64,000 bases of DNA from Deltaproteobacteria bacterium (GTDB taxonomy: Bacteria > Desulfobacterota > GWC2-55-46 > UBA9637 > GWC2-42-11). Numbering within the stretch: the stretch's first letter is position 1; the number at the start of each line of letters is the position of its first letter. The notes beneath the pieces were generated by a model. The model was not told where the DNA came from and searched no databases. It saw only the letters and a list, made by a program, of their open reading frames with translations. The stretch covers positions 627 through 64,626 of the forward strand of contig JACRPW010000044.1 in the NCBI GenBank assembly GCA_016223005.1, written 5' to 3'. The position numbers and the translations under genes were made by a program. Below are positions 1-52,026 of the stretch, piece by piece.

Positions 1-1310
1 GCCCTTTTCCTGATTTAGTACTTCAAACAAGCCCGACAACTCCACAGCATCATTGATTTTGAATTGCTCTTCGCGTTTTTTATTGTATGATGCAATAGTT
101 TCACATACTTCCTTTAAATTTTTGTCTTTGCTCAACAAGCCATTTTGTATTCGGTCTTTTATATCGTGCCAGTTGGCAAAATACTTATCGGAAACTCTAT
201 CTACGGCAGCTTTCGACCAATAAATGTCGTCCCACTCTTCGGTTTGTTTCAGCCAGTCAATGAACCTGTAAATGGTTTGTACATCCTCCTTTGTTTATAC
301 AGCGTCTTGAAAGGCAGAAGTTTTCTGAAATCCTTTTCAACCCTTCGTGCCTGATTGTACAGGTTAATAAGTAAGTTATAATGCCCGATAATCCGATTGT
401 ATTCCTCTATTCCCGATTGCGACAAACACTCTGAAAATCTGGCAATTTCAAACATCTTCTCCTCAATGGGAGATGCTTCTATCATTTTATTTGTTTCGGC
501 ATCCTTTATATGTGTTGTTCTGTTGGCATCTTTCAAATATTGGTAGGCATTCAGGTACTCGTCTTTTCGTGAAAAAGTTACTTTCGCATTATCCTGTGAT
601 TTCTTCTTTTTCTTTTGAACTTTCCCCTCCAAAAACTGAATGCAGTTATCACAAAACTTGGGTAAGTTATCGTGTATAATCCGCGTAGCAACAGCAGTCG
701 CTTTTTCTTCTTTTTTATAGTAATTTTCCCTGTTTTGGTTGTAACCGGAGAAATAGGTGAAGAATTTTTCAAATGTTTTTAAGTGCGTTTCTAATTCCTT
801 TCTCTCGTTCTCATCATCTGTTAACTTCCTAATATTGTTTTTGATATACTTCAATATTCCTGCTTCGGTCAAACATTTGACGCCCTCTTTTTTTAAAACT
901 GGTTTTCCCTTATTGTCTTCTCCCGCCTTTTCTTTTAAAGGTTGTGTTCCAACATCGAAGGTTTTAACAACGGCTTCCCGAAGCGATTTTTCTTCTGAAG
1001 TAATCGTATTTTCTTTTTCCTTCTTCAGTTTGTATTTCTCAAAATATTTAGAGAAATCGATTTGTTTAGCTTCATCAGAAGTCAAGCTTCTGTTGATTAC
1101 CTGCTCGTGTATATGGTCCATAACAGGTTTCAGGGCTATGTACGCATCTTTTATTTTCCTGTCGTTTTCAAGGATATTTCCAAGCAATCTTGCCGCATCT
1201 TCTGCTGCAAGTGGTTTCCCATCTTTTCCGATAGGTTTCAGTTCAAACCTCAGCGTTTTGGAAATCTGGTATTTATTTGTAAACTTCTCAAAGATTGATT
1301 CATTTTCCAT
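1..1310 (-). CDS. cas12a: Cas12a (Cpf1) type V-A CRISPR effector, N-terminal ~435 codons only. The gene continues beyond the window start. There is an apparent -1 frameshift in an A-run near 294 (the listed ORF 249..1310 stops at 249 while a second frame continues open to position 1).
   Basis: The N-terminus MENESIFEKFTNKYQISKTLRFELKPIGKD matches the conserved Cas12a start (xEKFTNxYxLSKTLRFxxIPxGKT). FEKFFTYFSGYNQNRENYYKKEEKATAVATRIIHDNLPKF matches the Cas12a REC1 block (FxxFTTYFxGFxxNRxNxFSxExxSTxIxxRxIxxNLPKF). LYNQARRVEKDFRKLLPFKTLYKQ matches LYNQKxKxKLPKFKPLYKQ. The downstream frame reads FIDWLKQTEEWDDIYWSKAAVDRVSDKYF, consistent with continuation of Cas12a. An AAGGAGG ribosome-binding site lies 9 nt upstream of the ATG at 1310. 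Confidence 0.85.
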
Positions 1311-1373
1311 AGATTGTGTCCTCCTTATAAATGCGTTCTAATCAAAAATCCTCTCAAGTCGAACGAATAAATA

Positions 1374-1542
1374 AAAATAAGGGTTCATTCGTAAACCCCG
1401 CACCCCGCCCACAGGGCGGGGCCTTTTGGGTGCGGGGTAAAAAAGTTGAAATGTCAGGAAGGGGTGAGTGAAGTAGGTTGGGTTAGTTTTATCAACCCAA
1501 CCTTTGCAATAAACCATTGGATTTAGCGCTGCTCAACCCAAC
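1374..1542. repeat. Copy A of a ~170-nt structured direct repeat. It contains nested GC hairpins (ccccgcacc..ggtgcgggg enclosing cgccc-acag-ggcgg followed by cctttt) and a ggttgggtt/aacccaacc hairpin.
   Basis: About 93% identical to 2186..2355 in the same orientation. The inverted repeats were read directly from the sequence. Confidence 0.9.
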
Positions 1543-1583
1543 CTACAACCTACAAACCAAGCCAAAACGGCTGAGCTTCCCGC

Positions 1584-1853
1584 TTATATCTGCTCATCAT
1601 GTGCAGATTTTTCCTGCTTTACCCTCTCATGCAGACAAACCTTTATCAACGCCCCGCGATCAACACCGATCGCTTCACGGATTGTGTCAATGTCGTTAAC
1701 CAGTGATTCCGCAACATCCAGTGTAAGTCGCACCTTTTTCCCATGACGTATAAGCTTTGCCTTAGACATGTCAATAATGTCATGGATATCTTCACTGGAG
1801 TCAAAGCGGCGATCAAATTCAGCGCTGCTTTTAGCCGTTTTTTTCGTTTTCAT
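1584..1853 (-). CDS. brnA: BrnA-like antitoxin (ribbon-helix-helix/CopG-type), partner of the DUF497 toxin
   Basis: 89 aa with a KVRLTLDVAESLV beta-strand/helix pattern. It lies immediately downstream of BrnT and overlaps it by ~23 nt (toxin-first BrnTA organisation). Confidence 0.6.
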   Translation of the reverse strand: MKTKKTAKSSAEFDRRFDSSEDIHDIIDMSKAKLIRHGKKVRLTLDVAESLVNDIDTIREAIGVDRGALIKVCLHERVKQEKSAHDEQI

Positions 1854-2151
1854 ATAGTTCTACCTCCTTTTTGTTTGCCCGTCTGACCGAAATGATACGG
1901 ATTGCTTCATTGCGGTTGGTGTAAATTGCGATCCATATCTTCTTTTGGAGCTTGCCGATCACGATCCATATCTTCTTTTGGAGCTTGCTGATCACGATCC
2001 ATCTGTCTTCTACGGGATGTGGCGCATGGATTTCAATGCGGTTTTCATCCAGCCACAACTCTTTTGCCGTATCAAAGTCGATGCCGTGTGTAGATTTGTT
2101 TGAACTGCTCTTGTCGGAATCCCATTCAAACTTCATGGTGTTATTATACAT
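1831..2151 (-). CDS. brnT: BrnT toxin (DUF497/COG2929 RelE-like ribonuclease toxin). The likely real start is the internal MKFEWD at 2136. It contains a 33-bp in-frame tandem duplication.
   Basis: MKFEWDSDKSSSNKSTHGIDFDTAKELW...RIISVRRANKKE is the typical DUF497 signature. The duplicated 11-aa block is WIVISKLQKKI/WIVIGKLQKKI. Confidence 0.75.
   Translation of the reverse strand: MYNNTMKFEWDSDKSSSNKSTHGIDFDTAKELWLDENRIEIHAPHPVEDRWIVISKLQKKIWIVIGKLQKKIWIAIYTNRNEAIRIISVRRANKKEVELYENEKNG
1931..1996. repeat. 33-nt tandem duplication (2 full units plus a partial third) inside brnT
   Basis: atccatatcttcttttggagcttgccgatcacg is repeated with one mismatch. It is in-frame (11 codons). Confidence 0.9.
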
Positions 2152-2170
2152 ATTTTGTCCAGATTTTCAA
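2142..2170 (-). promoter_or_regulatory. Candidate sigma70 promoter for brnTA: TTGAAA-17-TATAAT, with the -10 ending 6 nt before the MKFEW ATG (leaderless or very short leader)
   Basis: On the minus strand the hexamers TTGAAA (2165-2170) and TATAAT (2142-2147) are separated by a 17-nt spacer. No SD sequence lies between the -10 and the ATG. Confidence 0.5.
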
Positions 2171-2185
2171 CATTTACTTATTATG

Positions 2186-2355
2186 AAAATAAGGGTTCAT
2201 TCGTAAACCCCGCACCCCGCCCACAGGGCGGCCTTTTGGGTGCGGGGTAAAAAAGTTGAAATGTCAGGAAGGGGTGAGTGAAGTAGGTTGGGTTGGTTTT
2301 ATCAACCCAATCTATTCTGCAATAAACCGTTGGGTTTCGCGCTGCTCAACCCAAC
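2186..2355. repeat. Copy B of the ~170-nt structured direct repeat
   Basis: Aligns with 1374..1542 with a few substitutions and a 2-nt indel. Confidence 0.9.
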
Positions 2356-2388
2356 ATATAAACTAAAATACGAAAGACGAAGAATAAG

Positions 2389-3174
2389 TTACACCCGCCA
2401 GTTATACAGGTCAAAATCCGCATCAGGGACATGCTCTGCTATATACCCCCTCTTTGGCCACCTCTCCAGAGAGATTTCGTCTTTGACTATTGTGATAAAA
2501 AATCTGATTTCATCATTCGTTTTAAGACCAAGTGCATTAAACGGCACAGCAATCTCCACAACATCCTTCACTGCTATCTCTTTAATCTCTGCTTTTTTAG
2601 TCCACTGCCCATCCCTATACTTTTCAAATATGTATGCCCATTCAATAGAGGGTCCATTTATCTGTGCCTCTACCTTAGAGTTTTCTGTGGAAAAAATGTT
2701 TATTGCAAAACCCCATCTTATATCAGAAGGCATAATCCCGCTTATGAAATCAAATCTGAAAAAGAGGCAGTCAAGATTAAAGCCGTAGTTTATGGAACTT
2801 AGTATGCTGCTAGTATCTTTTTCCATGTGCATGGCGCTTCCACCCCATCCGATATCTATCTTACCTGAAGAAAGCCACTCAAAATAATCGGTTATCTCAC
2901 CGTCAATAACAGGCATTATAAAAGATGTCGGTCTCGCAGCAGGTTCACAAACCCTTTCTTCTGAGATAATCGGAATATCAAGATTTGTCGGCGGCTCTTT
3001 ACCTATGAGCATATAAAGTTTTTTAAGATGCTTCCTGAACAGTTCATCAAATTCAATGTCATTCATTGATGAGTGTTCTTCCCCATACCACCAGAACCAG
3101 TCGCTCCCCTCCGCTGTATATATCTCCTCCCATGCCTCTTTAAGTTTTGAGATACTATCTTCACTTAATTCCAT
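2389..3174 (-). CDS. Glycoside hydrolase family 57, C-terminal portion. Probably the 3' part of a single GH57 gene separated from 3212..4501 by a frameshift.
   Basis: Its reading frame stays open upstream to 3219. The upstream ORF stops at 3212-3214, so the two frames abut within ~6 nt, which is the signature of an indel. The gene context is GH57. Confidence 0.55.
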   Translation of the reverse strand: MELSEDSISKLKEAWEEIYTAEGSDWFWWYGEEHSSMNDIEFDELFRKHLKKLYMLIGKEPPTNLDIPIISEERVCEPAARPTSFIMPVIDGEITDYFEWLSSGKIDIGWGGSAMHMEKDTSSILSSINYGFNLDCLFFRFDFISGIMPSDIRWGFAINIFSTENSKVEAQINGPSIEWAYIFEKYRDGQWTKKAEIKEIAVKDVVEIAVPFNALGLKTNDEIRFFITIVKDEISLERWPKRGYIAEHVPDADFDLYNWRV

Positions 3175-3211
3175 ACCGCCCTTTTTTAAGTTATTTTCAA
3201 ACAGAACCAGT

Positions 3212-4501
3212 TCATTCGCCTATCGTCACACACTTTATCAAATTATTACTGCTTATTTTTGAATACAGGGCATTTAAAAAATCATTCCCATCATTTTTAT
3301 AATATTCCCATGCATTTTCACCATCCAGAACTATTGTGACAAGATGACCCTCTATCTCGCTGCCAAGGGATTCCCTGATGTATAACAACCTTTCAACAAG
3401 GTCATCTGCAGCCTTTCCTGCATCCCATTTTGAATAAACAAACCCGATTAAGTCAGAAAGTATGCGGTCCCTGAAGACCATCGCAATCTCATTACCACCC
3501 TTCAGCATCTTATATGGTTTATACAATATATGCGGGTCAAGACATCTGTTGTTATCATCCCTCCTTATATGTTTGCCTAAAGACTGCTCCAGTATCCTCT
3601 CATCAGTTGCAATCCAGTTAATACCATGTCTTGCTATTAAAGATACTGCATCTTCACTTACACCCCCTTCTGGAGGCCACATACCAGCAGGCTTCTTGCC
3701 AAAGACATTTTCATGGTATCTAATGCCCTTTGCTATCTGCTCCATTGCATCTTCAGGGTGGACGAATCTTGAATTTGGCAAAACCACCCACGGCATTGCA
3801 TCTCTGGCAGAGTCAGTATCGCATAAAAGCGGCAGTATCGGATGATAGTACGGAGAGGTTGACAGTTCAATAATACCCAAGTCCTGCATTTTCCTGTATT
3901 CATGGATTATGATTTTTAAAATATCATACTGCTTTTCTATAAGCCTTGATTTTTCATCTTCTGTAAAATACTGCCCTTTTTTTTCAAGTCCTTTAAGAAA
4001 GTCATCGTCATCACGAAGTAAAGGGTCTATCCACGCAAGATTGAAAAGAACCTGCAGGTCCAGAAAGTCCTGCACAGCATAGTAGCGTATGGCTTCAGAG
4101 AAATTGCCATTGTATGAATGCAGCCCCCTTTTTTTAAGCAATTCCCAGTATCTTGGAAACGGCATTATCATATTCTCCCAGTTGGCAAAGAAAAACTTAT
4201 CTAAGAGAAATCTCTTGTCATCCAAAGTCAATATATCCGCAGGTTTTGTTGTAACATCCAGAAATCTATCCTTTGCCCTGCCTTCTGTGTAGTCTATGAG
4301 CTGCTCTAAAAGGGACGGCACAATATTGACTGTCTGGTGGATACTGGGATACCTTTCAAGTATATGCACCATATCATAATAATCCTTTGTCCCATGCAGT
4401 CTGACCCACGGCAGGGGATACCTGCCATCTACAGGGTCTTTATATAACGGCTGGTGCATATGCCAGAGAAATGCCACATGAATGGGTGAGTTGTCTTTCA
4501 T
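3212..4501 (-). CDS. Glycoside hydrolase family 57 catalytic domain (alpha-amylase / 4-alpha-glucanotransferase / branching-enzyme family), N-terminal portion
   Basis: The N-terminus VAFLWHMHQPLYKD carries the GH57 HQP motif, in a (beta/alpha)-barrel-like context. Confidence 0.7.
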   Translation of the reverse strand: MKDNSPIHVAFLWHMHQPLYKDPVDGRYPLPWVRLHGTKDYYDMVHILERYPSIHQTVNIVPSLLEQLIDYTEGRAKDRFLDVTTKPADILTLDDKRFLLDKFFFANWENMIMPFPRYWELLKKRGLHSYNGNFSEAIRYYAVQDFLDLQVLFNLAWIDPLLRDDDDFLKGLEKKGQYFTEDEKSRLIEKQYDILKIIIHEYRKMQDLGIIELSTSPYYHPILPLLCDTDSARDAMPWVVLPNSRFVHPEDAMEQIAKGIRYHENVFGKKPAGMWPPEGGVSEDAVSLIARHGINWIATDERILEQSLGKHIRRDDNNRCLDPHILYKPYKMLKGGNEIAMVFRDRILSDLIGFVYSKWDAGKAADDLVERLLYIRESLGSEIEGHLVTIVLDGENAWEYYKNDGNDFLNALYSKISSNNLIKCVTIGE

Positions 4502-4507
4502 GATCTA

Positions 4508-4996
4508 TCAATCTCTCATATTTACAAACTGCAGATTTATCTCCATATCCTTTGCCTTTAACATCTGGATAACTGCCTGAAGGTCATCCCTTTTCTTTCC
4601 TGTTACCCTTACCTGTTCATCCTGAATCTGCGGCTGAACCTTTATGTCACCGTCTTTTATAATCTTAACGATTTCCTTTGCCTTTTCAGTTGGTATGCCC
4701 TGTCTGATTTTTATCACCTGTCTCTTTAAACCGCCTGATGCATCTTCAATCTTTCCATATTCCAGTGCCTTTAAAGAAACACCCCTTTTCACCATCTTCC
4801 CTTGCAGAACATCTATAACTGCCATCAGTTTATAGTCATCGTCACCTATAACTATTATCTCCCCTTTCTTCTCCCACCTTATCTCACTCTTTGAACCTTT
4901 AAAATCATACCTCTGGCTGATTTCCTTTACAGCCTGATGAACCGCATTGTCAACCTCCTGTGTGTCTACCTTTGAAACAATATCAAAAGACGGCAT
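4508..4996 (-). CDS. yajQ: YajQ family nucleotide-binding protein (UPF0234)
   Basis: [19 protein letters not shown]... is the conserved YajQ N-terminus. Length is 162 aa. Confidence 0.85.
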
Positions 4997-5087
4997 ATCA
5001 TCTCCTCCTGATTGTCAGAAAATGCTATTCCGTAAAATAGCGATTAAAAACCTCGCTATTTTGCATTTTCTTCTATGTTGATAAAAT

Positions 5088-6479
5088 CTATCTCACATCT
5101 CCTCCAACAACTATCTCTGGTATGCGCAGTGTTGGCTGGGCATCTGAAACAGGCACACCCTGAGCATCCTTACCGCATGTGCCAATACCAAAACCTAAAT
5201 CACTGCCCACCATATCAATATCTTTCAGAACCTTTGGGCCATTCCCTGCTAATGTGGCGCCTCTCACAGGCTCTGATATTTTACCATTTTCTATGAGATA
5301 CCCCTCTGTAACCTCAAACACAAAATCACCATTTACCGTATTAACCTGCCCCCCTCCCATCTTTTTTACCAGAAGCCCCTTTTCAAGAGATGCGATTATC
5401 TCCTGCGGGCCTGTTTTACCCGGTGCAATCAGGGTATTTGTCATCCTTGGTATCGGTCTATGAAGGTAAGATTCCCGTCTGCCGTTGCCTGTAGACCTTT
5501 TCCCATCCTTCATTGCAGTAAGTCTATCATACATATAACCTTTAAGAATACCATTTTCAACAAGCACAGTCTTCTGCCCCTTTGTGCCCTCATCATCAAA
5601 AAAGAATGAACCCCGTTTATTTGGGATTGTCGCATCATCTATTACAGTTATAAGAGGGGATGCAACCTGTTCGCCAATCTTATTTGAATAGACTGAAAGG
5701 CACTGCTGTGATAAATCAGCCTCCAGTCCATGTCCTATTGCCTCATGAATCATTGTGCCGCCTGCACTGCTTGATAATATTACAGGCATCTTGCCGCCAG
5801 TCGCCATTCTTGAATTTAACAAGATAATTGCCCTTCGTGCCGCTGTTTCGGCAATCTGTTCAGGCGGCATATCTTCTAATATCTCTATACCCATGCAGCC
5901 GCCAACAGGTTCATAACCTGTTTGAAGGACATCACCCTCCACAGCAACAACATTCACAAAAAAGAGTATGCTTGTTTTATCTTCCTCTGCCCATGCACCT
6001 TCACTATTTATAACAGCCATCCTTCTTGCTCCATCACCATATACAACCTTAACCTGTTGGACCCTTTTATCTGTCCGCCTCGCTGCCATGTTTGCCCTGT
6101 TTACAATCTCAACCTTCTCTAAAAGGGGGATACTATGAGGAGGTATCTTTATAAAAAACCCTGCTGAAATATTTTTATGAGTGAGTGCAATATCCCTTTC
6201 TGTCTCTCCTTTTTTAACTGCCTGATTTACAGTTTCAGCAAGGGTAATCAGCCCTTTCTGTGAAATGTCATTTGTATATCCGTATGCGGTTTTATAATCA
6301 AATATAACCCTTATTCCGCAGCCGACATCCCTGCCAGATATAACCTTTTCAATCCTGTCTTCTTCGCAGACAATTGATGTATTTACAGTCTCTTCAAAGT
6401 ATATATCAGCAAAGTCTCCGCCTTTTTTGAGTGCAGTTTTCAGGATTTCAAACGGGTCAATACCCTTAATCAGTTCCAT
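5088..6479 (-). CDS. tldD: TldD/PmbA family metalloprotease. The listed ORF extends to 6581 but the likely start is MELIKGIDPF at 6479.
   Basis: HEAIGHGLEADL metal-binding motif. The N-terminal extension in the 6581 start has no homology and overlaps thiE. Confidence 0.85.
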   Translation of the reverse strand: MELIKGIDPFEILKTALKKGGDFADIYFEETVNTSIVCEEDRIEKVISGRDVGCGIRVIFDYKTAYGYTNDISQKGLITLAETVNQAVKKGETERDIALTHKNISAGFFIKIPPHSIPLLEKVEIVNRANMAARRTDKRVQQVKVVYGDGARRMAVINSEGAWAEEDKTSILFFVNVVAVEGDVLQTGYEPVGGCMGIEILEDMPPEQIAETAARRAIILLNSRMATGGKMPVILSSSAGGTMIHEAIGHGLEADLSQQCLSVYSNKIGEQVASPLITVIDDATIPNKRGSFFFDDEGTKGQKTVLVENGILKGYMYDRLTAMKDGKRSTGNGRRESYLHRPIPRMTNTLIAPGKTGPQEIIASLEKGLLVKKMGGGQVNTVNGDFVFEVTEGYLIENGKISEPVRGATLAGNGPKVLKDIDMVGSDLGFGIGTCGKDAQGVPVSDAQPTLRIPEIVVGGDVR

Positions 6480-14760: not shown

Positions 14761-15735
14761 TTAACCTTTATTCCTTACAGCCAAAAGCATCCTCTCAATA
14801 AGTTCTGTAAAATCTATGCCTGCACACCTTGCTGCCTTTGGCAGTAAACTCAGTTCTGTTAGACCAGGGACTGTGTTAAGTTCAAGAACATAGGGGTCAT
14901 TTTTTTTGTCAAGGCATACATCAACCCTTGCTGCGCCGCAGCACCCAAGGGCATTGTATGCATTAATGGCAGCCTCTTTTACCCTGCATTCAACCCCTTT
15001 CTCCAATGGTGCAGGCGCGATGTAATCTGTCATCCCTTTTGTATATTTTGACCTATAGTCATATAAACCTTTTTTGGGTTTTATCTCTACTACAGGCAAA
15101 GGTTCTCCGCTTAATATCCCTACAGTAACCTCCCTGCCCTGAATAAACCTTTCCAGGACAATCTTGTTATCAAACCTGAAGGCTTTTTTAATTGCCTTTT
15201 GCAAATCCTTTTTATCCTTTACAACAGTAAGCCCTATTGTTGAACCCTGCCTTGCAGGTTTTACTACAAGAGGAAATTTGTAATTTGTAGTTCGTAATTC
15301 GTAATTCTTAATTCCTAATTCGTAATTTCTTATAACCTGCCAATCAGGTGTTGGTATACCATGAAACCTAAAAATCTCCTTTGCTGCTGCCTTGTCAAAT
15401 GCCACTCCACTTGCAAGCACACCTGACCCTGTATATGGTATCCCCATTATCTCAAGGAGCCCCTGTATTGTGCCGTCTTCTCCATATTTGCCGTGTAGGG
15501 CGATAAATGCAAGTTTAATCTTCTTTTTCTCAATTACCTTTGCTGTATCCCTGCCTGCATCCACTGCAACCACTTTATAACCTTTACCCTTAAGCGCCTT
15601 ATATACAGCCATGCCTGAGCAGAGGGATACCTCCCTTTCAGATGACATCCCGCCCATCAAAACCCCTATTTTAAGTTTTTTTAAATTAGTAATTCGTAAT
15701 TCGTAATTCGTAATTTTTTTACTCCTCTCCGACAA
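14761..15735 (-). CDS. ddl: D-alanine--D-alanine ligase. It has a TTG start with a GAGGAGG SD. Heptamer-repeat peptides sit at the N-terminus (ITNYELRITN) and internally (NYELGIKNYELRTTNYKF).
   Basis: ATP-grasp Ddl motifs (KIGVLMGGMSSEREVSL, GSGVLASGVAFDK). The aattcgt-type repeats lie at 15684-15718 and 15275-15330. Confidence 0.92.
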   Translation of the reverse strand: MSERSKKITNYELRITNLKKLKIGVLMGGMSSEREVSLCSGMAVYKALKGKGYKVVAVDAGRDTAKVIEKKKIKLAFIALHGKYGEDGTIQGLLEIMGIPYTGSGVLASGVAFDKAAAKEIFRFHGIPTPDWQVIRNYELGIKNYELRTTNYKFPLVVKPARQGSTIGLTVVKDKKDLQKAIKKAFRFDNKIVLERFIQGREVTVGILSGEPLPVVEIKPKKGLYDYRSKYTKGMTDYIAPAPLEKGVECRVKEAAINAYNALGCCGAARVDVCLDKKNDPYVLELNTVPGLTELSLLPKAARCAGIDFTELIERMLLAVRNKG

Positions 15736-18069: not shown

Positions 18070-19139
18070 GCATCCCTCTATAAATATCTTCTACAATAAT
18101 ACTAGCCGCATCAGGCATTCCCAATTGGTGTGCCCTTTCCTCAATCTCTTTTATCTTTACTAAATTTTCATAAAGTGAAGTCAATGCATGGGCAAGTTTT
18201 GCCCCATCCAGTTCTTCCTGTTTGAACATGACAGCAGCGCCTCTGTCTGCAAGATACCTTGCATTAACCTCCTGATGGTTGTCCGCAGCAAATGGATACG
18301 GGATAAGGATCGATGCCTTGCCAAGCGCCGTAATCTCTGCAATACTTGTTGCACCGCTCCTACAGATAATCAAGTCTGCCATTTTGTATGCATCTGCCAT
18401 ATCGTCAATAAAATTAAACACATTAGTTTTGAGTTTTGAGTTTATTGTATGTTTCTTTCACCCTCTCATAATCCTCTTCACCTGTCTGGTGGATGATATT
18501 TATTGAGCAATGTTTAAGATATTCCAGCGACTCAAGAAATATTGAGTTTATTGCCTTTGCACCTTGACTGCCTCCAAAAACCAGAATGGTGAATCCTTCG
18601 CCTTTCGCCTTTCGCCTTTCGCCTTTCGCCTTTAGTATTTCCTTCCTCACAGGATTTCCTGAAACTACCACCTTGCCCTTTGGAAAATATTTTTTTGCAT
18701 CAGGAAATGCAACAAATACCCTGTCAACAAACCTCCCAAGGTATCTGTTCGTAATGCCCGGCAGGGTATTTTGTTCAAGGATTATTGTCATAACCTTCAT
18801 AATCTTTGCAGCCGCTACAACTGGAAAGGCACTATACCCGCCTGCACCTACTACAAGGTCAGGCATATATCTTCTAATCAACTTTATAGATTTAAAAATC
18901 CCCATAAGTGCCTTTAAAATGGAAATCGCCCTATTTAATAATCCCTTTCCTTTCACACCTCCAACATCTAATGTCTCAAGATGGAAACCATATTTGTAGA
19001 GTATCTTTGCCTCCAGACCCTTCTTGCTCCCTATAAATGTAATCTCATTTCCAGAATCCCTTTCCTTAAAGATTTCTGCCAGTGCAATCGCTGGAAATAA
19101 ATGTCCTCCGGTTCCGCCTCCAGTTAGTATAATTTTCAA
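18062..19139 (-). CDS. murG: MurG glycosyltransferase. It is encoded as two ORFs in different frames (18423..19139 for the N-domain, 18062..18421 for the C-domain), joined at a 3-unit aaactca heptamer tract. Deleting one 7-nt unit restores a single frame.
   Basis: The N-ORF has GGGTGGHLFPAIALA. The C-ORF has FIDDMADAYKMADLIICRSGA, the conserved MurG C-terminal motif. The frames abut at 18424-18444. Confidence 0.85.
18424..18444. repeat. Heptamer tandem repeat (minus-strand aaactca x3) at the murG frame junction
   Basis: The + strand reads tagtttt gagtttt gagttta. Confidence 0.9.
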
Positions 19140-20245: not shown

Positions 20246-21663
20246 AGCGCCTCTACCAATTTTTTAAAGACATCCCCTCTCTCCTCATAACTCTTAAACA
20301 TATCAAAACTTGAACATGCAGGGGAAAGGAGGACTATGTCTCCGCTTTTTGCTGTATTGTGTGCCTTTTTAACAGCATCTTCCATTGACAAGGCGAATAC
20401 AGTCTCTGTGCAGGCACCCAGCGCCTTTTTCATCTTCTGTCTTGCCTCTCCTATAAGTATCAAGAGTTTGACCTTTTCCTTTATCAAATCTTTAAGCACA
20501 CTGTAGTCGCCGCCTTTGTCCTTACCACCTGCTATTAGGACAATTGGCGCATTAAACCCCTCCAGACACTTCTGCAAGGCGCCGATATTTGTGCCTTTTG
20601 AATCATCGTAATAGGAAACACCGTTGATCTCTCTTGCAAACTCTACCCTGTGCGGCAGGGCATCAAAGGCATTTATGATTTTGATTACTTCATCATCCTT
20701 TAAACCGCACATTTTTGCTGCCGCTATTACAGCCATTATGTTTTCTATGTTATGGATACCCTTAAGTTTGAAACCGACAGTTGGATATATTTCTTTTGCG
20801 CCATCAAGAGAATAAACAATCCTGTTATCCTTATAATAAACCCCCTCTTCCAGAACATGGGTGCTGCTGAAAGGGATGATACGGATTTGAGATTTGAGAT
20901 TTGAGATTTGAGATTTTATAACCGGGTCATCTATATTCACAACCGCAATATCCCCTTGCCCCTGATTTTTGAATATATTAAATTTTGCATCCGCATATTC
21001 CTTAAAATTTGCGTATCTGTCCAGATGGTCCTCGGTAATGTTCAGAAGTATAGAAATATACGGCTTAAACCGTCTTATGCCCTCCAGTTGAAAACTGCTT
21101 ACCTCTGCTACCACATAATCAGACCTTTCTTTTCCCATGGCATAGTCAATCAGAGGAGTACCAATATTGCCGCCCACAAAGACATCTCTGCCTGCATCAC
21201 TCAAAACCCTGCCCAGCAGTGCTGTGGTTGTAGTTTTGCCATTTGTTCCTGTAACAGCAATAATAGGGGTGTCTATAAAATTATATGCCAGTTCAATCTC
21301 GCTTATAACCTCAATACCTTTCTTTCTTGCCCCCTGTATAGGTTCTATACTTGACGGCACACCCGGGCTTAAGATTATAAGGTCTGCCTCTGTAAAAATA
21401 TCTGCCGGGTGTTTACCTGCTGCAACCTTTACCCCTTCCATGTCATCTGAATAAGGCAGGTCTTCTATTGGTTTTAAGTCTGTTACAGTAACAACTGCCC
21501 CCTTTTCCTTCAGGAACCTTATGGTAGAAAGTCCTGTAGATGCAAGACCGACAACAAGGACATGCTTGCCTTTCAGGTCAAACTGATTAATGCGAGAAAC
21601 GATGTAACGCGGGAAACGATGTAAGGTTTCCTGCCTTTCCTGCCTTTCCCGCCTTTCTCGCAT
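20242..21663 (-). CDS. murD: UDP-N-acetylmuramoylalanine--D-glutamate ligase. The ATG 21663 start with a GAGGTG SD gives a repeat-encoded N-terminal extension (MRERRERQERQETLHRF). There is an internal KSQISNLKSQI heptamer insertion.
   Basis: Mur ligase blocks (GTNGKTTTTAL). The gatttga x4 repeat lies at 20884-20911. Confidence 0.92.
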   Translation of the reverse strand: MRERRERQERQETLHRFPRYIVSRINQFDLKGKHVLVVGLASTGLSTIRFLKEKGAVVTVTDLKPIEDLPYSDDMEGVKVAAGKHPADIFTEADLIILSPGVPSSIEPIQGARKKGIEVISEIELAYNFIDTPIIAVTGTNGKTTTTALLGRVLSDAGRDVFVGGNIGTPLIDYAMGKERSDYVVAEVSSFQLEGIRRFKPYISILLNITEDHLDRYANFKEYADAKFNIFKNQGQGDIAVVNIDDPVIKSQISNLKSQIRIIPFSSTHVLEEGVYYKDNRIVYSLDGAKEIYPTVGFKLKGIHNIENIMAVIAAAKMCGLKDDEVIKIINAFDALPHRVEFAREINGVSYYDDSKGTNIGALQKCLEGFNAPIVLIAGGKDKGGDYSVLKDLIKEKVKLLILIGEARQKMKKALGACTETVFALSMEDAVKKAHNTAKSGDIVLLSPACSSFDMFKSYEERGDVFKKLVEAL

Positions 21664-25560: not shown

Positions 25561-25611
25561 CTTTCGCCTTTCGCCGTGAAAAGCATGCTTTTCACCCTTA
25601 CGCCTTTAGCC
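25561..25611. repeat. Mini-palindrome element: cgccttt-type direct repeats flanking the palindrome gtgaaaagcatgcttttcac (murE-ftsI spacer). It is homologous to 50666-50710.
   Basis: The 20-nt palindrome is identical in both copies, and the flanks are related. Confidence 0.9.
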
Positions 25612-25615
25612 TGCC

Positions 25616-50356: not shown

Positions 50357-52026
50357 TGTCAAATAAATCAATAATAGCATCTGTTATATCAGGCACTATT
50401 ATGATATTTGCATTCCCGCCTTTTGATATATGGGTTATAGGTTGGTTTGGCATGGCGCCTTTATTCTTTGCCATTTATGATAAAAAGCCGTTGCAGGCAT
50501 TTGCACTGGGCTTTATCTGGGGCATTGTTTTTTTTCTCGGCACTGTTTACTGGGTTGTAAACTCAATGGTAAATTACGGTGGTGTGCCTGTATGGGCAAG
50601 TGTGCTGGCGCTTCTGCTTCTTGTAATTGTCTTAAGCCTTTACCCTGCTGTATTCGCTTATTTTACCTTTAGCCGTGAAAAGCATGCTTTTCACCCTTCA
50701 GCCTTTCGCCTGATTTTTATCCCTTTCCTCTGGGTCAGTCTTGAATTTGTGCGGACATATCTTTTTACAGGCTTTCCTTGGGTCTTACTTGGTTATTCAC
50801 AAACAGCATTCCTCCCAATAATGCAGATTGCTGATATAACAGGTGTCTATGGTGTATCGTTTTTGATAATCATGGTCAATGTTTTTCTATTCAATTGCGG
50901 ACTGCAGATTGCAGATTGCGGATTTAAAATTAAAATTTCTAAAATGGAATGGATTATAGTATTTTCGGTTTTAATCCTTGTCTTTGGTTATGGTCATTTA
51001 AGGATTGGACAGATTGATAATTTAACTAAAAACTGGAGGCAGATTAAGATAGGTATTGCCCAGGGCAATATAGATCAGGCGCAGAAATGGGACCCTGCAC
51101 ATCAGGAAGGAACGATAGATATTTACAGGCAGATTAGTATAGACATTGCACAAAATGAAAAGGACATTGACCTTATTATATGGCCAGAAACAGCCACACC
51201 ATTTTATCTTCAGTCTGATGAAAAATTCGGTCCGCTTATCTTTGATATAGCAAAAACTCTGGCAGTAAACCTTATTACAGGAAGTCCTGCGCATGAGTAT
51301 ACATCTGATGGTAAAACTATAAATTACTATAACAGCGTGTTTCTGATTTCAAAGCAGGGAGGCATTGTCAATAGATACGATAAAGTCCATCTCGTGCCTT
51401 TCGGCGAATATGTCCCTTTTAAAAGATTTCTTCCATTTGAAAAACTTGTTGCAGGTGTCGGGGATTTCAGTTCAGGAAAAAACTTCAAGCCCCTTGCATT
51501 AAATAATGATGATACATTTGGCATCCTCATATGTTTTGAGGCAATATTTCCTGACATAGCAAGGCAGCTTTTGAAAAATGGCGCAGACTTTTTAATCACA
51601 GTAACAAATGATGCATGGTTTGGAAGGTCATCTGCACCATATCAGCACCTATCCCAATCATTAGTGCGGGCTGTTGAAGGCAGGACATTTTTAATCCGCT
51701 CTGCCAATACAGGTATAAGCGCAGTGATTGACCCTGTTGGAAGGATAAAGGTTAAAAGCGGACTGTTTACAAGAGAAGGTTTAGTAGATACAATATCATT
51801 AAAAGAAAGGTCTTTCACAACATTTTATACCCGATATGGCGATGTGTTTGCCATTGGATGCATATTCATCTCAATAGTTATATTTATTACTAATGCAAGA
51901 AAAAGGGGGCAGACTTGCCTATTGACATTTGCCCTCTTTATCTTCTCTATCACCTTTTTTACCTCTGCCGTCCCCTTTTCTTATTTTTCTTATTGGTCCC
52001 CTTTTCTTGTTTTCTTATTATCCTAA
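50356..52026 (+). CDS. lnt: Apolipoprotein N-acyltransferase (CN-hydrolase). It carries an in-frame mini-palindrome insertion (FSREKHAFHPSAFRL) and a heptamer-repeat insertion (GLQIADCGFKIKI).
   Basis: Multi-TM N-terminal domain plus CN-hydrolase with E...K...C (ILICFEAIFPD). The repeats lie at 50666-50710 and 50894-50935. Confidence 0.88.
   Translation: MSNKSIIASVISGTIMIFAFPPFDIWVIGWFGMAPLFFAIYDKKPLQAFALGFIWGIVFFLGTVYWVVNSMVNYGGVPVWASVLALLLLVIVLSLYPAVFAYFTFSREKHAFHPSAFRLIFIPFLWVSLEFVRTYLFTGFPWVLLGYSQTAFLPIMQIADITGVYGVSFLIIMVNVFLFNCGLQIADCGFKIKISKMEWIIVFSVLILVFGYGHLRIGQIDNLTKNWRQIKIGIAQGNIDQAQKWDPAHQEGTIDIYRQISIDIAQNEKDIDLIIWPETATPFYLQSDEKFGPLIFDIAKTLAVNLITGSPAHEYTSDGKTINYYNSVFLISKQGGIVNRYDKVHLVPFGEYVPFKRFLPFEKLVAGVGDFSSGKNFKPLALNNDDTFGILICFEAIFPDIARQLLKNGADFLITVTNDAWFGRSSAPYQHLSQSLVRAVEGRTFLIRSANTGISAVIDPVGRIKVKSGLFTREGLVDTISLKERSFTTFYTRYGDVFAIGCIFISIVIFITNARKRGQTCLLTFALFIFSITFFTSAVPFSYFSYWSPFLVFLLS
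50666..50710. repeat. Second copy of the gtgaaaagcatgcttttcac mini-palindrome element, inside lnt and translated in-frame
   Basis: Same palindrome with cctttagcc / ccttcagcctttcgcc flanks. Confidence 0.9.

Follow-up and report, generated by a model that had tools for sequence, protein, structure and literature searches.

The brnTA locus

We analyzed a toxin gene, brnT, and its partner brnA in a 64-kb stretch of contig JACRPW010000044.1 (64,000 nt, hereafter the window). Both genes lie on the minus strand, and their coordinates are collected with those of the surrounding features in Table 1. The toxin open reading frame (ORF) was listed at 2151..1831. When translated from the ATG at 2136, it matched Pfam PF04365 (BrnT_toxin/DUF497) with 83.5 bits (cutoff 34.5, E = 1.3e-23). 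The match fell into two stretches, of which only the first was reported (residues 5-60, profile positions 1-57 of 77), a pattern consistent with a split by an insertion. Solved structures were also matched by sequence (PDB 7vd7_A, E = 3e-6; 3u97, E = 0.05). By these comparisons the product is a member of the BrnT/DUF497 family of RelE-like toxins with predicted ribonuclease (RNase) activity. The first-pass annotation had assigned it to this family, and both the Pfam score and the BrnA antitoxin gene downstream upheld that assignment. The brnA product scored 65.4 bits against NCBIfam NF047399 (BrnA equivalog; cutoff 60). Its gene shares 23 nt with the end of brnT, an overlap more frequent in relatives than any other (22 of 51 loci), and the two genes form a predicted toxin-first brnTA type II toxin-antitoxin (TA) bicistron. 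Both window proteins have NCBI records, MBI5682533.1 for BrnT ("BrnT family toxin", 101 aa) and MBI5682532.1 for BrnA (CopG family regulator). Their source is a metagenome-assembled genome (MAG) from groundwater, labelled Deltaproteobacteria bacterium and carrying locus tags HZC45_.

Table 1. Features of the brnTA locus and its flanks in the window. CDS, coding sequence; RHH, ribbon-helix-helix; AF2, AlphaFold2.
Feature	Coordinates	Strand	Description and evidence
brnT CDS	1831..2136	minus	101 aa, MKFEW start, stop codon 1833..1831; Pfam, PDB, AF2, NCBI
Duplication copy 1	1969..2001	minus	codons 46-56, WIVISKLQKKI; derived Ser AGC at 1989-1987
Duplication copy 2	1936..1968	minus	codons 57-67, WIVIGKLQKKI; Gly GGC at 1956-1954
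"Partial third unit"	1929..1935	minus	start of next strand (W68-I69..., WIAI); DNA alignment with L110, L001 and L111
Sigma-70-type promoter	2143..2170	minus	TTGAAA-16 nt-TATAAT; promoter scan, 11/12 matches
Spurious N-terminal extension MYNNT	2137..2151	minus	ATG-TAT-AAT, the -10 box read as codons
brnA antitoxin gene	1584..1853	minus	89 aa, CopG/RHH type; NCBIfam NF047399, NCBI record
Shine-Dalgarno motif of brnA	1863..1868	minus	AGGAGG, 9 nt before the brnA ATG, within the brnT CDS
brnTA cassette	1556..2188	minus	~630 bp; own promoter, both genes, weak terminator-like hairpin 1572..1560
Direct repeat R2	2185..2362	minus	~180 bp, highly structured; abuts promoter side of cassette
Direct repeat R1	1373..1548	minus	~94% identical to R2; abuts brnA side; 60 bp upstream of cas12a
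cas12a (Cpf1), N-terminal part	1-1310	minus	starts at 1310; REC1 Pfam and PDB Cas12a matches at 1e-24

A 33-bp tandem duplication within brnT

Tandem Repeats Finder reported a single array in the gene, at 1929-2002 (period 33, 2.2 copies, 97% matches, score 141), and this was the top-scoring tandem repeat of the whole window. The array consisted of two 33-bp units in frame with brnT, identical at 32 of 33 positions; the sole mismatch was AGC (Ser) in the upstream copy against GGC (Gly) in the downstream copy. A perfect in-frame tandem duplication with a partial third unit had been described for this gene beforehand. The tandem arrangement and the reading frame were borne out by the repeat search and the sequence, and the perfection was not. 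The third unit proved to be merely the 8 bp ATGGATCG that open the next strand, which unduplicated relatives carry as well.

A search of a 5.8-billion-protein collection gave 332 matches, of which 120 homologs were listed (P numbers below denote proteins and L numbers loci). The closest protein homologs were 90-96% identical to the window protein outside an 11-residue gap. Homologs that commonly carried the duplication would have marked it as a lineage feature, as the first-pass annotation pointed out, and none did: an internal tandem repeat was absent from all 120 listed BrnT homologs, and the duplication was absent from 79 genome loci (brnT ORFs of at most 98 aa, four of them truncated) and from 29 metagenome loci. 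Across the core from W5 to Y95, 119 of the 120 listed homologs differed in length from the window protein by the 11-residue gap alone. On the sequences compared, the duplication is lineage-specific and not a lineage-wide feature of the family.

The closest unduplicated alleles were P0001/L110 (Logan SRR22388058), P0006/L001 (Deltaproteobacteria MAG JACQEJ01) and P0003/L111. They shared with the window the ~630-bp cassette, its promoter, the brnA overlap and the cassette boundaries. They differed from it in having a single 33-bp unit each (DNA alignment), Lys16, Arg in the RRARKKE motif, Gly20 and Trp73 in BrnA, and no flanking 180-bp R repeats. The peptide of copy 2 was that of the closest relatives P0001-P0003 and P0006, and the DNA of copy 2 matched L001 and L111 base for base. 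At both ends of their single unit, 33 bp apart, L110 and L111 had the octamer ATGGATCG, with one base different in L001; one of these copies in the relatives encodes part of Arg-Trp-Ile-Val and the other part of Ile-Trp-Ile-Ala. The window allele thus contained exactly one extra 33-bp unit relative to these alleles, with head-to-tail copies and microhomology at the ancestral unit boundaries.

Short direct repeats are a classic substrate of slipped-strand mispairing. The duplication is almost certainly a genuine product of slippage, as judged from these alignments; slippage or unequal exchange between the two 8-bp ATGGATCG copies, 33 bp apart in the ancestral gene, would have produced it. Because every aligned relative has GGC (Gly) at the Ser/Gly codon, the Ser codon of copy 1 appears to be a later change, in which G-to-A in the upstream copy would have turned a conserved Gly into Ser. 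Synonymous divergence between the window and L110 was 0.115. Set against one difference in 33 bp between the copies, this suggests that the duplication is younger than the split from L110 and not necessarily very recent, a dating that is very imprecise.

Position of the duplication in the fold

The AlphaFold2 (AF2) model of the unduplicated P0006 (predicted local distance difference test, pLDDT, 93.6) had strands at 34-38, 45-52, 55-64 and 67-75 and a C-terminal helix at 78-87. In the models, the duplicated unit (46-56) comprises strand beta3, the tight beta3-beta4 turn and two residues at the beginning of beta4, in agreement with the earlier placement of the repeat within the conserved DUF497 core. 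The model of the duplicated BrnT (pLDDT 84.3) had a predicted RelE-like fold, an antiparallel sheet on two short N-terminal helices, with a template modelling (TM) score of 0.77-0.82 to 7vd7_A and a Foldseek E-value of 4.6e-8. In this model copy 2 formed the strand at 56-63 and copy 1 was left as a loop of low confidence, in which residues 47-52 had pLDDT values below 50. The choice between the two copies was dictated by gap placement in the multiple sequence alignment (MSA) and was excluded from the evidence.

The closest solved structure to window BrnT was chain A of PDB 7VD7, from a toxin-antitoxin complex of Salmonella Typhimurium. It was 29% identical to the window protein, without a duplication, and its alignment had a 6-residue gap across the repeat region. 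The BrnT/BrnA pair of Brucella abortus (Heaton et al. 2012, J Biol Chem 287:12098; PDB 3U97; PMC5086665) resembles the window locus in its PF04365 domain and in its toxin-first order with a CopG/RHH BrnA. Brucella BrnT has the same RelE-like four-stranded sheet with helices, and shares D6, K9, R41 (R45 in the window) and E78 (E91 in the window). The two proteins differ in that their similarity is low (E = 0.05) and in that the window protein has the 11-residue duplication after the equivalent of R41, Thr for the conserved Lys of the KHG motif and Ser for E7. This Ser is found in the whole subfamily.

The RNase activity of Brucella BrnT requires Asp6, Glu7, Lys9, Arg41 and Glu78 (review, PMC5086665). 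In the pairwise alignment, Arg41 corresponded to window Arg45, directly before the duplicated block, and the insertion separated R45 from the copy of beta3 that has the ancestral sequence. Since beta3 and its turn are duplicated right after Arg45, one copy must be extruded. If copy 2 served as the strand, as in the AlphaFold model, Arg45 would be moved 11 residues away from beta3. If copy 1 (Gly50Ser) served as the strand, the beta3-beta4 hairpin would carry an 11-residue bulge.

Probable attenuation or loss of toxicity

Window BrnT departed from the 120 listed homologs at two columns that were at least 90% conserved, K16T in the KHG motif and R88N in RRARKKE. Its partner BrnA departed at Gly20 (99% Gly; G20S) and Trp73 (94% Trp; W73C), and two or more such deviations were found in only 6 of 72 BrnA sequences. 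When changes were polarized against four close relatives, 3 synonymous and 7 nonsynonymous changes were private to the window. Four of these 7 nonsynonymous changes fell at columns at least 90% conserved; the corresponding count for the four relatives was 1-2 of 33 (Fisher p = 0.002-0.005). In a related toxin, Aave_1720, the substitution K17A partly lowers toxicity and RNase activity (PMC10714953); K17 probably belongs to the same KH pair as window position 16.

Broken toxin genes also occurred among relatives. In L113 and L114, related brnT genes from two independent groundwater data sets, TGG was replaced by TAG at the codon of W46, where the block duplicated in the window begins. The nonsense codon (L113 2001-2300; also L114) splits the toxin into ORFs of 50 and 47 aa, and brnA is intact. 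Truncated brnT genes were found in L022 (stop after MKFE), L077 (74 aa) and L080 (24 aa). Apparently dead toxins thus make up a few percent of the family. These null alleles belong to the same subfamily and retain brnA; they differ from the window allele in being unambiguous truncations, whereas the window allele keeps its frame and its loss of function is only inferred.

Attenuation or inactivation of the window toxin is favored because the core is free of insertions and deletions in the family, the duplication abuts the catalytic Arg, the private changes fall at conserved sites and null alleles exist in relatives. We therefore consider that BrnT toxicity is probably reduced or lost. The toxin would then be attenuated or inactive, and the whole module would be drifting under relaxed constraint.

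Several results weigh against this. The reading frame was kept, and D6, K9, H17, R45 and E91 were all present in window BrnT. AF2 still gave a BrnT fold, a result that is driven by the MSA and decides neither way. Two deviations at conserved columns were no outlier for a BrnT protein, as 36 of the 120 listed homologs had at least 2. The branch excess of nonsynonymous over synonymous changes was not significant by itself (p = 0.31), and the pairwise ratio of nonsynonymous to synonymous divergence (pN/pS) between the window and L110 was 0.20, not raised relative to other pairs; comparisons with L001 were ignored, being distorted by its 2-codon deletion. Finally, the allele was recorded on one contig only; exact-sequence look-ups of window BrnT (101 and 106 aa), BrnA, YajQ and P0121 in a contig index gave no match.

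Most of these points would also suit a tolerated duplication, which we regard as possible and clearly the less probable outcome. Here copy 2 would bulge as a longer beta3-beta4 loop, Arg45 and the active site would stay in place, and a toxic BrnT would be neutralized by BrnA in a functional module. The intact promoter, start codon and brnA, the intact reading frame, the presence of the mapped catalytic residues, the modelled fold (pLDDT 84, TM 0.77-0.82 to 7vd7) and the low pN/pS are all in line with it. However, the sheet core showed no change of length in 119 of the 120 listed homologs, and copy 1, which would be needed as beta3, carries the Gly-to-Ser change at a nearly invariant Gly. The further private changes, which hit conserved positions in both proteins (basic ones in the toxin), also argue against tolerance. 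Impaired toxicity is therefore the outcome that we prefer.

Leaderless expression of brnT

The promoter scan matched a sigma-70-type promoter at 11 of 12 positions. Its -10 box, TATAAT, ended 6 nt before the ATG at 2136, and no Shine-Dalgarno (SD) motif preceded brnT. This geometry had been described in the first-pass annotation, which took it as a sign of a leaderless mRNA, and the scan confirmed the promoter. Transcription is predicted to start at or beside the A of the start codon.

The same comparison was made for 98 non-identical brnT loci from many phyla, with start codons anchored by homology. A -10-like hexamer ended 5, 6 or 7 nt before the brnT start in 17, 34 and 6 loci, respectively (57 of 98 in total), and every other position of the hexamer was found in about 1-2 loci each. 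An SD-like motif stood before 1 of 98 brnT starts and 46 of 52 brnA starts, compared with 11% of random positions. In Synechocystis sp. PCC 6803, two toxin-first DUF497 loci, sll1651/sll1652 and sll1965/ssl3719, have the layout predicted for the window (Toxins 2016, 8:228, PMC4963859). For sll1651 and sll1965 a 5' untranslated region of 0 nt, marked "leader-less", was found by mapping of transcription start sites (TSS); a third toxin-first DUF497 locus of this strain has a 45-nt leader (PMC4963859). These cyanobacterial loci are more distant from the window, and leaderlessness was measured there, whereas here it is read from promoter geometry. In Mycobacterium tuberculosis, TA modules are strongly overrepresented among leaderless transcripts, with no leader in 32 of the 37 TA gene pairs whose primary TSS was mapped (Cortes et al. 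2013, PMC3898074). These pairs are mostly of the antitoxin-first VapBC or MazEF types, and a quarter of all genes of that species are leaderless; in the window, by contrast, it is the toxin gene that would be leaderless, and a strong SD motif precedes the antitoxin gene.

The position of the -10 box in 57 of 98 loci, together with the Synechocystis TSS data, bore out the earlier suggestion, and the brnT mRNA is very likely leaderless. Leaderlessness is well supported, by these comparisons of upstream sequences, as a conserved trait of the family that is not peculiar to window brnT.

The choice of start codon bears on the same question. The span given in the first-pass annotation, 1831-2151, for which the strand was not stated, followed the start of the listed ORF at 2151, which proved false; the MKFEW start named in the same annotation, ATG 2136, was right. 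The ATG at 2151 was rejected as the true start because it lies inside the -10 box, because the equivalent codon in L002, L005 and L006 either lies in another frame or runs into a stop, and because NCBI also uses MKFEW. Starts of the MYNxx type were nevertheless present in 37 of the 120 listed homolog gene calls (e.g., P0001-P0005; the DNA was seen in L110, L001 and L111). These annotated N-termini are very probably wrong, which means that many database gene calls carry a false extension made of the -10 box read as codons.

An alternative is that brnT is not leaderless. It would be transcribed from a promoter further upstream or translated from ATG 2151, and TATAAT would be an operator or an AT-rich coincidence. 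There is a further, weak promoter-like site at 2207..2180 (9/12 matches), ATG 2151 is in frame and has the equivalents in gene calls just described, and one of the three Synechocystis loci has a leader. We consider this improbable, given the sharp clustering of -10 boxes 5-7 nt ahead of the start codon in loci from many phyla, the broken frame of the upstream ATG in L002, L005 and L006, the MKFEW start in the NCBI annotation, the two Synechocystis loci mapped as leaderless and the finding that neither candidate start has an SD motif.

Leaderless expression of brnT, the preferred reading, would have consequences for the operon. The near-consensus promoter would yield a toxin message that is leaderless and SD-less, hence weakly translated, and brnA would be translated from the strong AGGAGG inside brnT, giving antitoxin in excess despite the toxin-first order. 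The evidence leans slightly towards a general rule, in which BrnT/DUF497 toxins are leaderless across many phyla: their start codon directly adjoins the -10 box, and in many loci a palindromic operator as well, while translation of the downstream antitoxin begins at a strong internal SD motif. If true, a translational asymmetry would be hard-wired into these operons and would resolve the problem posed by their toxin-first gene order. Toxin synthesis could then rise specifically under conditions that favor leaderless translation, and the duplicated allele would be one decaying member of such a family. The family pattern, with a toxin start codon that lies 5-7 nt after a -10 box and lacks an SD motif and an antitoxin that almost always has one, is of more use than the duplication itself, as it offers a simple and testable account of antitoxin excess.

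The promoter of window brnT had no clear operator palindrome, only short inverted repeats around its -35 box. In the distant loci L050, L057, L060, L062, L066, L073, L076 and L078, GGTATA...TATACC palindromes lay over the region from the -10 box to the start codon. It is plausible that these are candidate BrnA operators that double as promoter elements.

Status of the duplicated allele

The duplication could in principle be an artefact that arose in assembling the MAG or in deriving its consensus. The exact protein was recorded on that one contig, no related contig had the duplication, and the nearby cas12a looks frame-shifted, a possible hint of local sequence errors. An artefact is nonetheless very improbable. 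The 74-bp array should be shorter than an Illumina read, and an ancestral repeat of 8 bp should be too short to loop a de Bruijn graph built with normal k-mer sizes. A copy-paste product would not have a one-base difference between its copies, the remaining window is densely packed with long intact ORFs, and a microhomology-flanked duplication is a classic outcome of true slippage. Least credible of all is an adaptive duplication, in which an extra strand would change the target or the antitoxin that the toxin recognizes, or would make it a non-toxic decoy that binds BrnA and so tunes autoregulation. Nothing direct favors it beyond a preserved frame and an operon that still seems fit for expression. 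The allele stands alone among more than 200 homologous loci, no spread or fixation was seen in any clade, and the accompanying changes at conserved residues of both partners resemble decay.

On balance, we favor the view that the locus is a genuine brnTA cassette with a lineage-specific slippage duplication, a probably disabled toxin and leaderless expression of the family type. Window brnT is an ordinary mutant member of a known toxin family, with a named record already in NCBI, and the duplication itself carries little weight as one more way to disable a chromosomal toxin gene. The duplicated and collapsed alleles form a natural pair for probing how far the BrnT sheet tolerates an extra strand beside the catalytic arginine.

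Cassette boundaries and neighboring sequences

Homology found by blastn to L110, L001, L111 and L112 spanned exactly 2188..1556/1568, at 85-90% identity. Since the homology stops at these positions, the mobile unit appears to be the ~630-bp cassette with its own promoter. The cassette is flanked by the two direct repeats R1 and R2, the only copies of this element in the window. The R element consists of three hairpins (GTTGGGTT...AACCCAAC twice and a GC-rich stem), and its fold had a z-score of about -4.9 on either strand. No Rfam match to the R repeats was obtained at permissive E-values in window positions 1-6000. The repeats were absent beside the same cassette in L110, L001 and L111. An integron gene cassette was considered and rejected, as the R repeats do not travel with the cassette, there are two copies only, and the polarity of the GTTGGGTT...AACCCAAC stem is opposite to that of attC R''/R'; an integrase was not searched for.

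The cas12a ORF stopped at 249, with a change of frame near 285-295. The other frame continued to the start of the window and had a weak REC2 match (E = 0.003), and the gene runs off the window and off the end of the contig. The change points to a frameshift at an A-run (caaagg) or, alternatively, to a small deletion.

On the other side of the cassette, a GH57 glycoside hydrolase ORF (429 aa; 3212-4501, minus strand) was followed, 37 nt on and in another frame, by an ORF of 261 aa (2389-3174, minus strand). Homologs of the 261-aa ORF were often C-terminal parts of longer PF03065 proteins, and the pair may be a split gene or a true two-gene arrangement.

Further repeats were seen elsewhere in the window. 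A 52-nt element with the palindrome GTGAAAAGCATGCTTTTCAC was present at 25562-25613 and 50661-50712, in copies 88% identical and 25 kb apart. Long minus-strand ORFs between ~14.8 and 21.7 kb contained heptanucleotide tandem repeats, AATTCGT x7.6 (15275-15327), TTCGCCT x5.3 (18597-18641) and GATTTGA x4.7 (20884-20916); a period of 7 nt is unusual within coding sequence.

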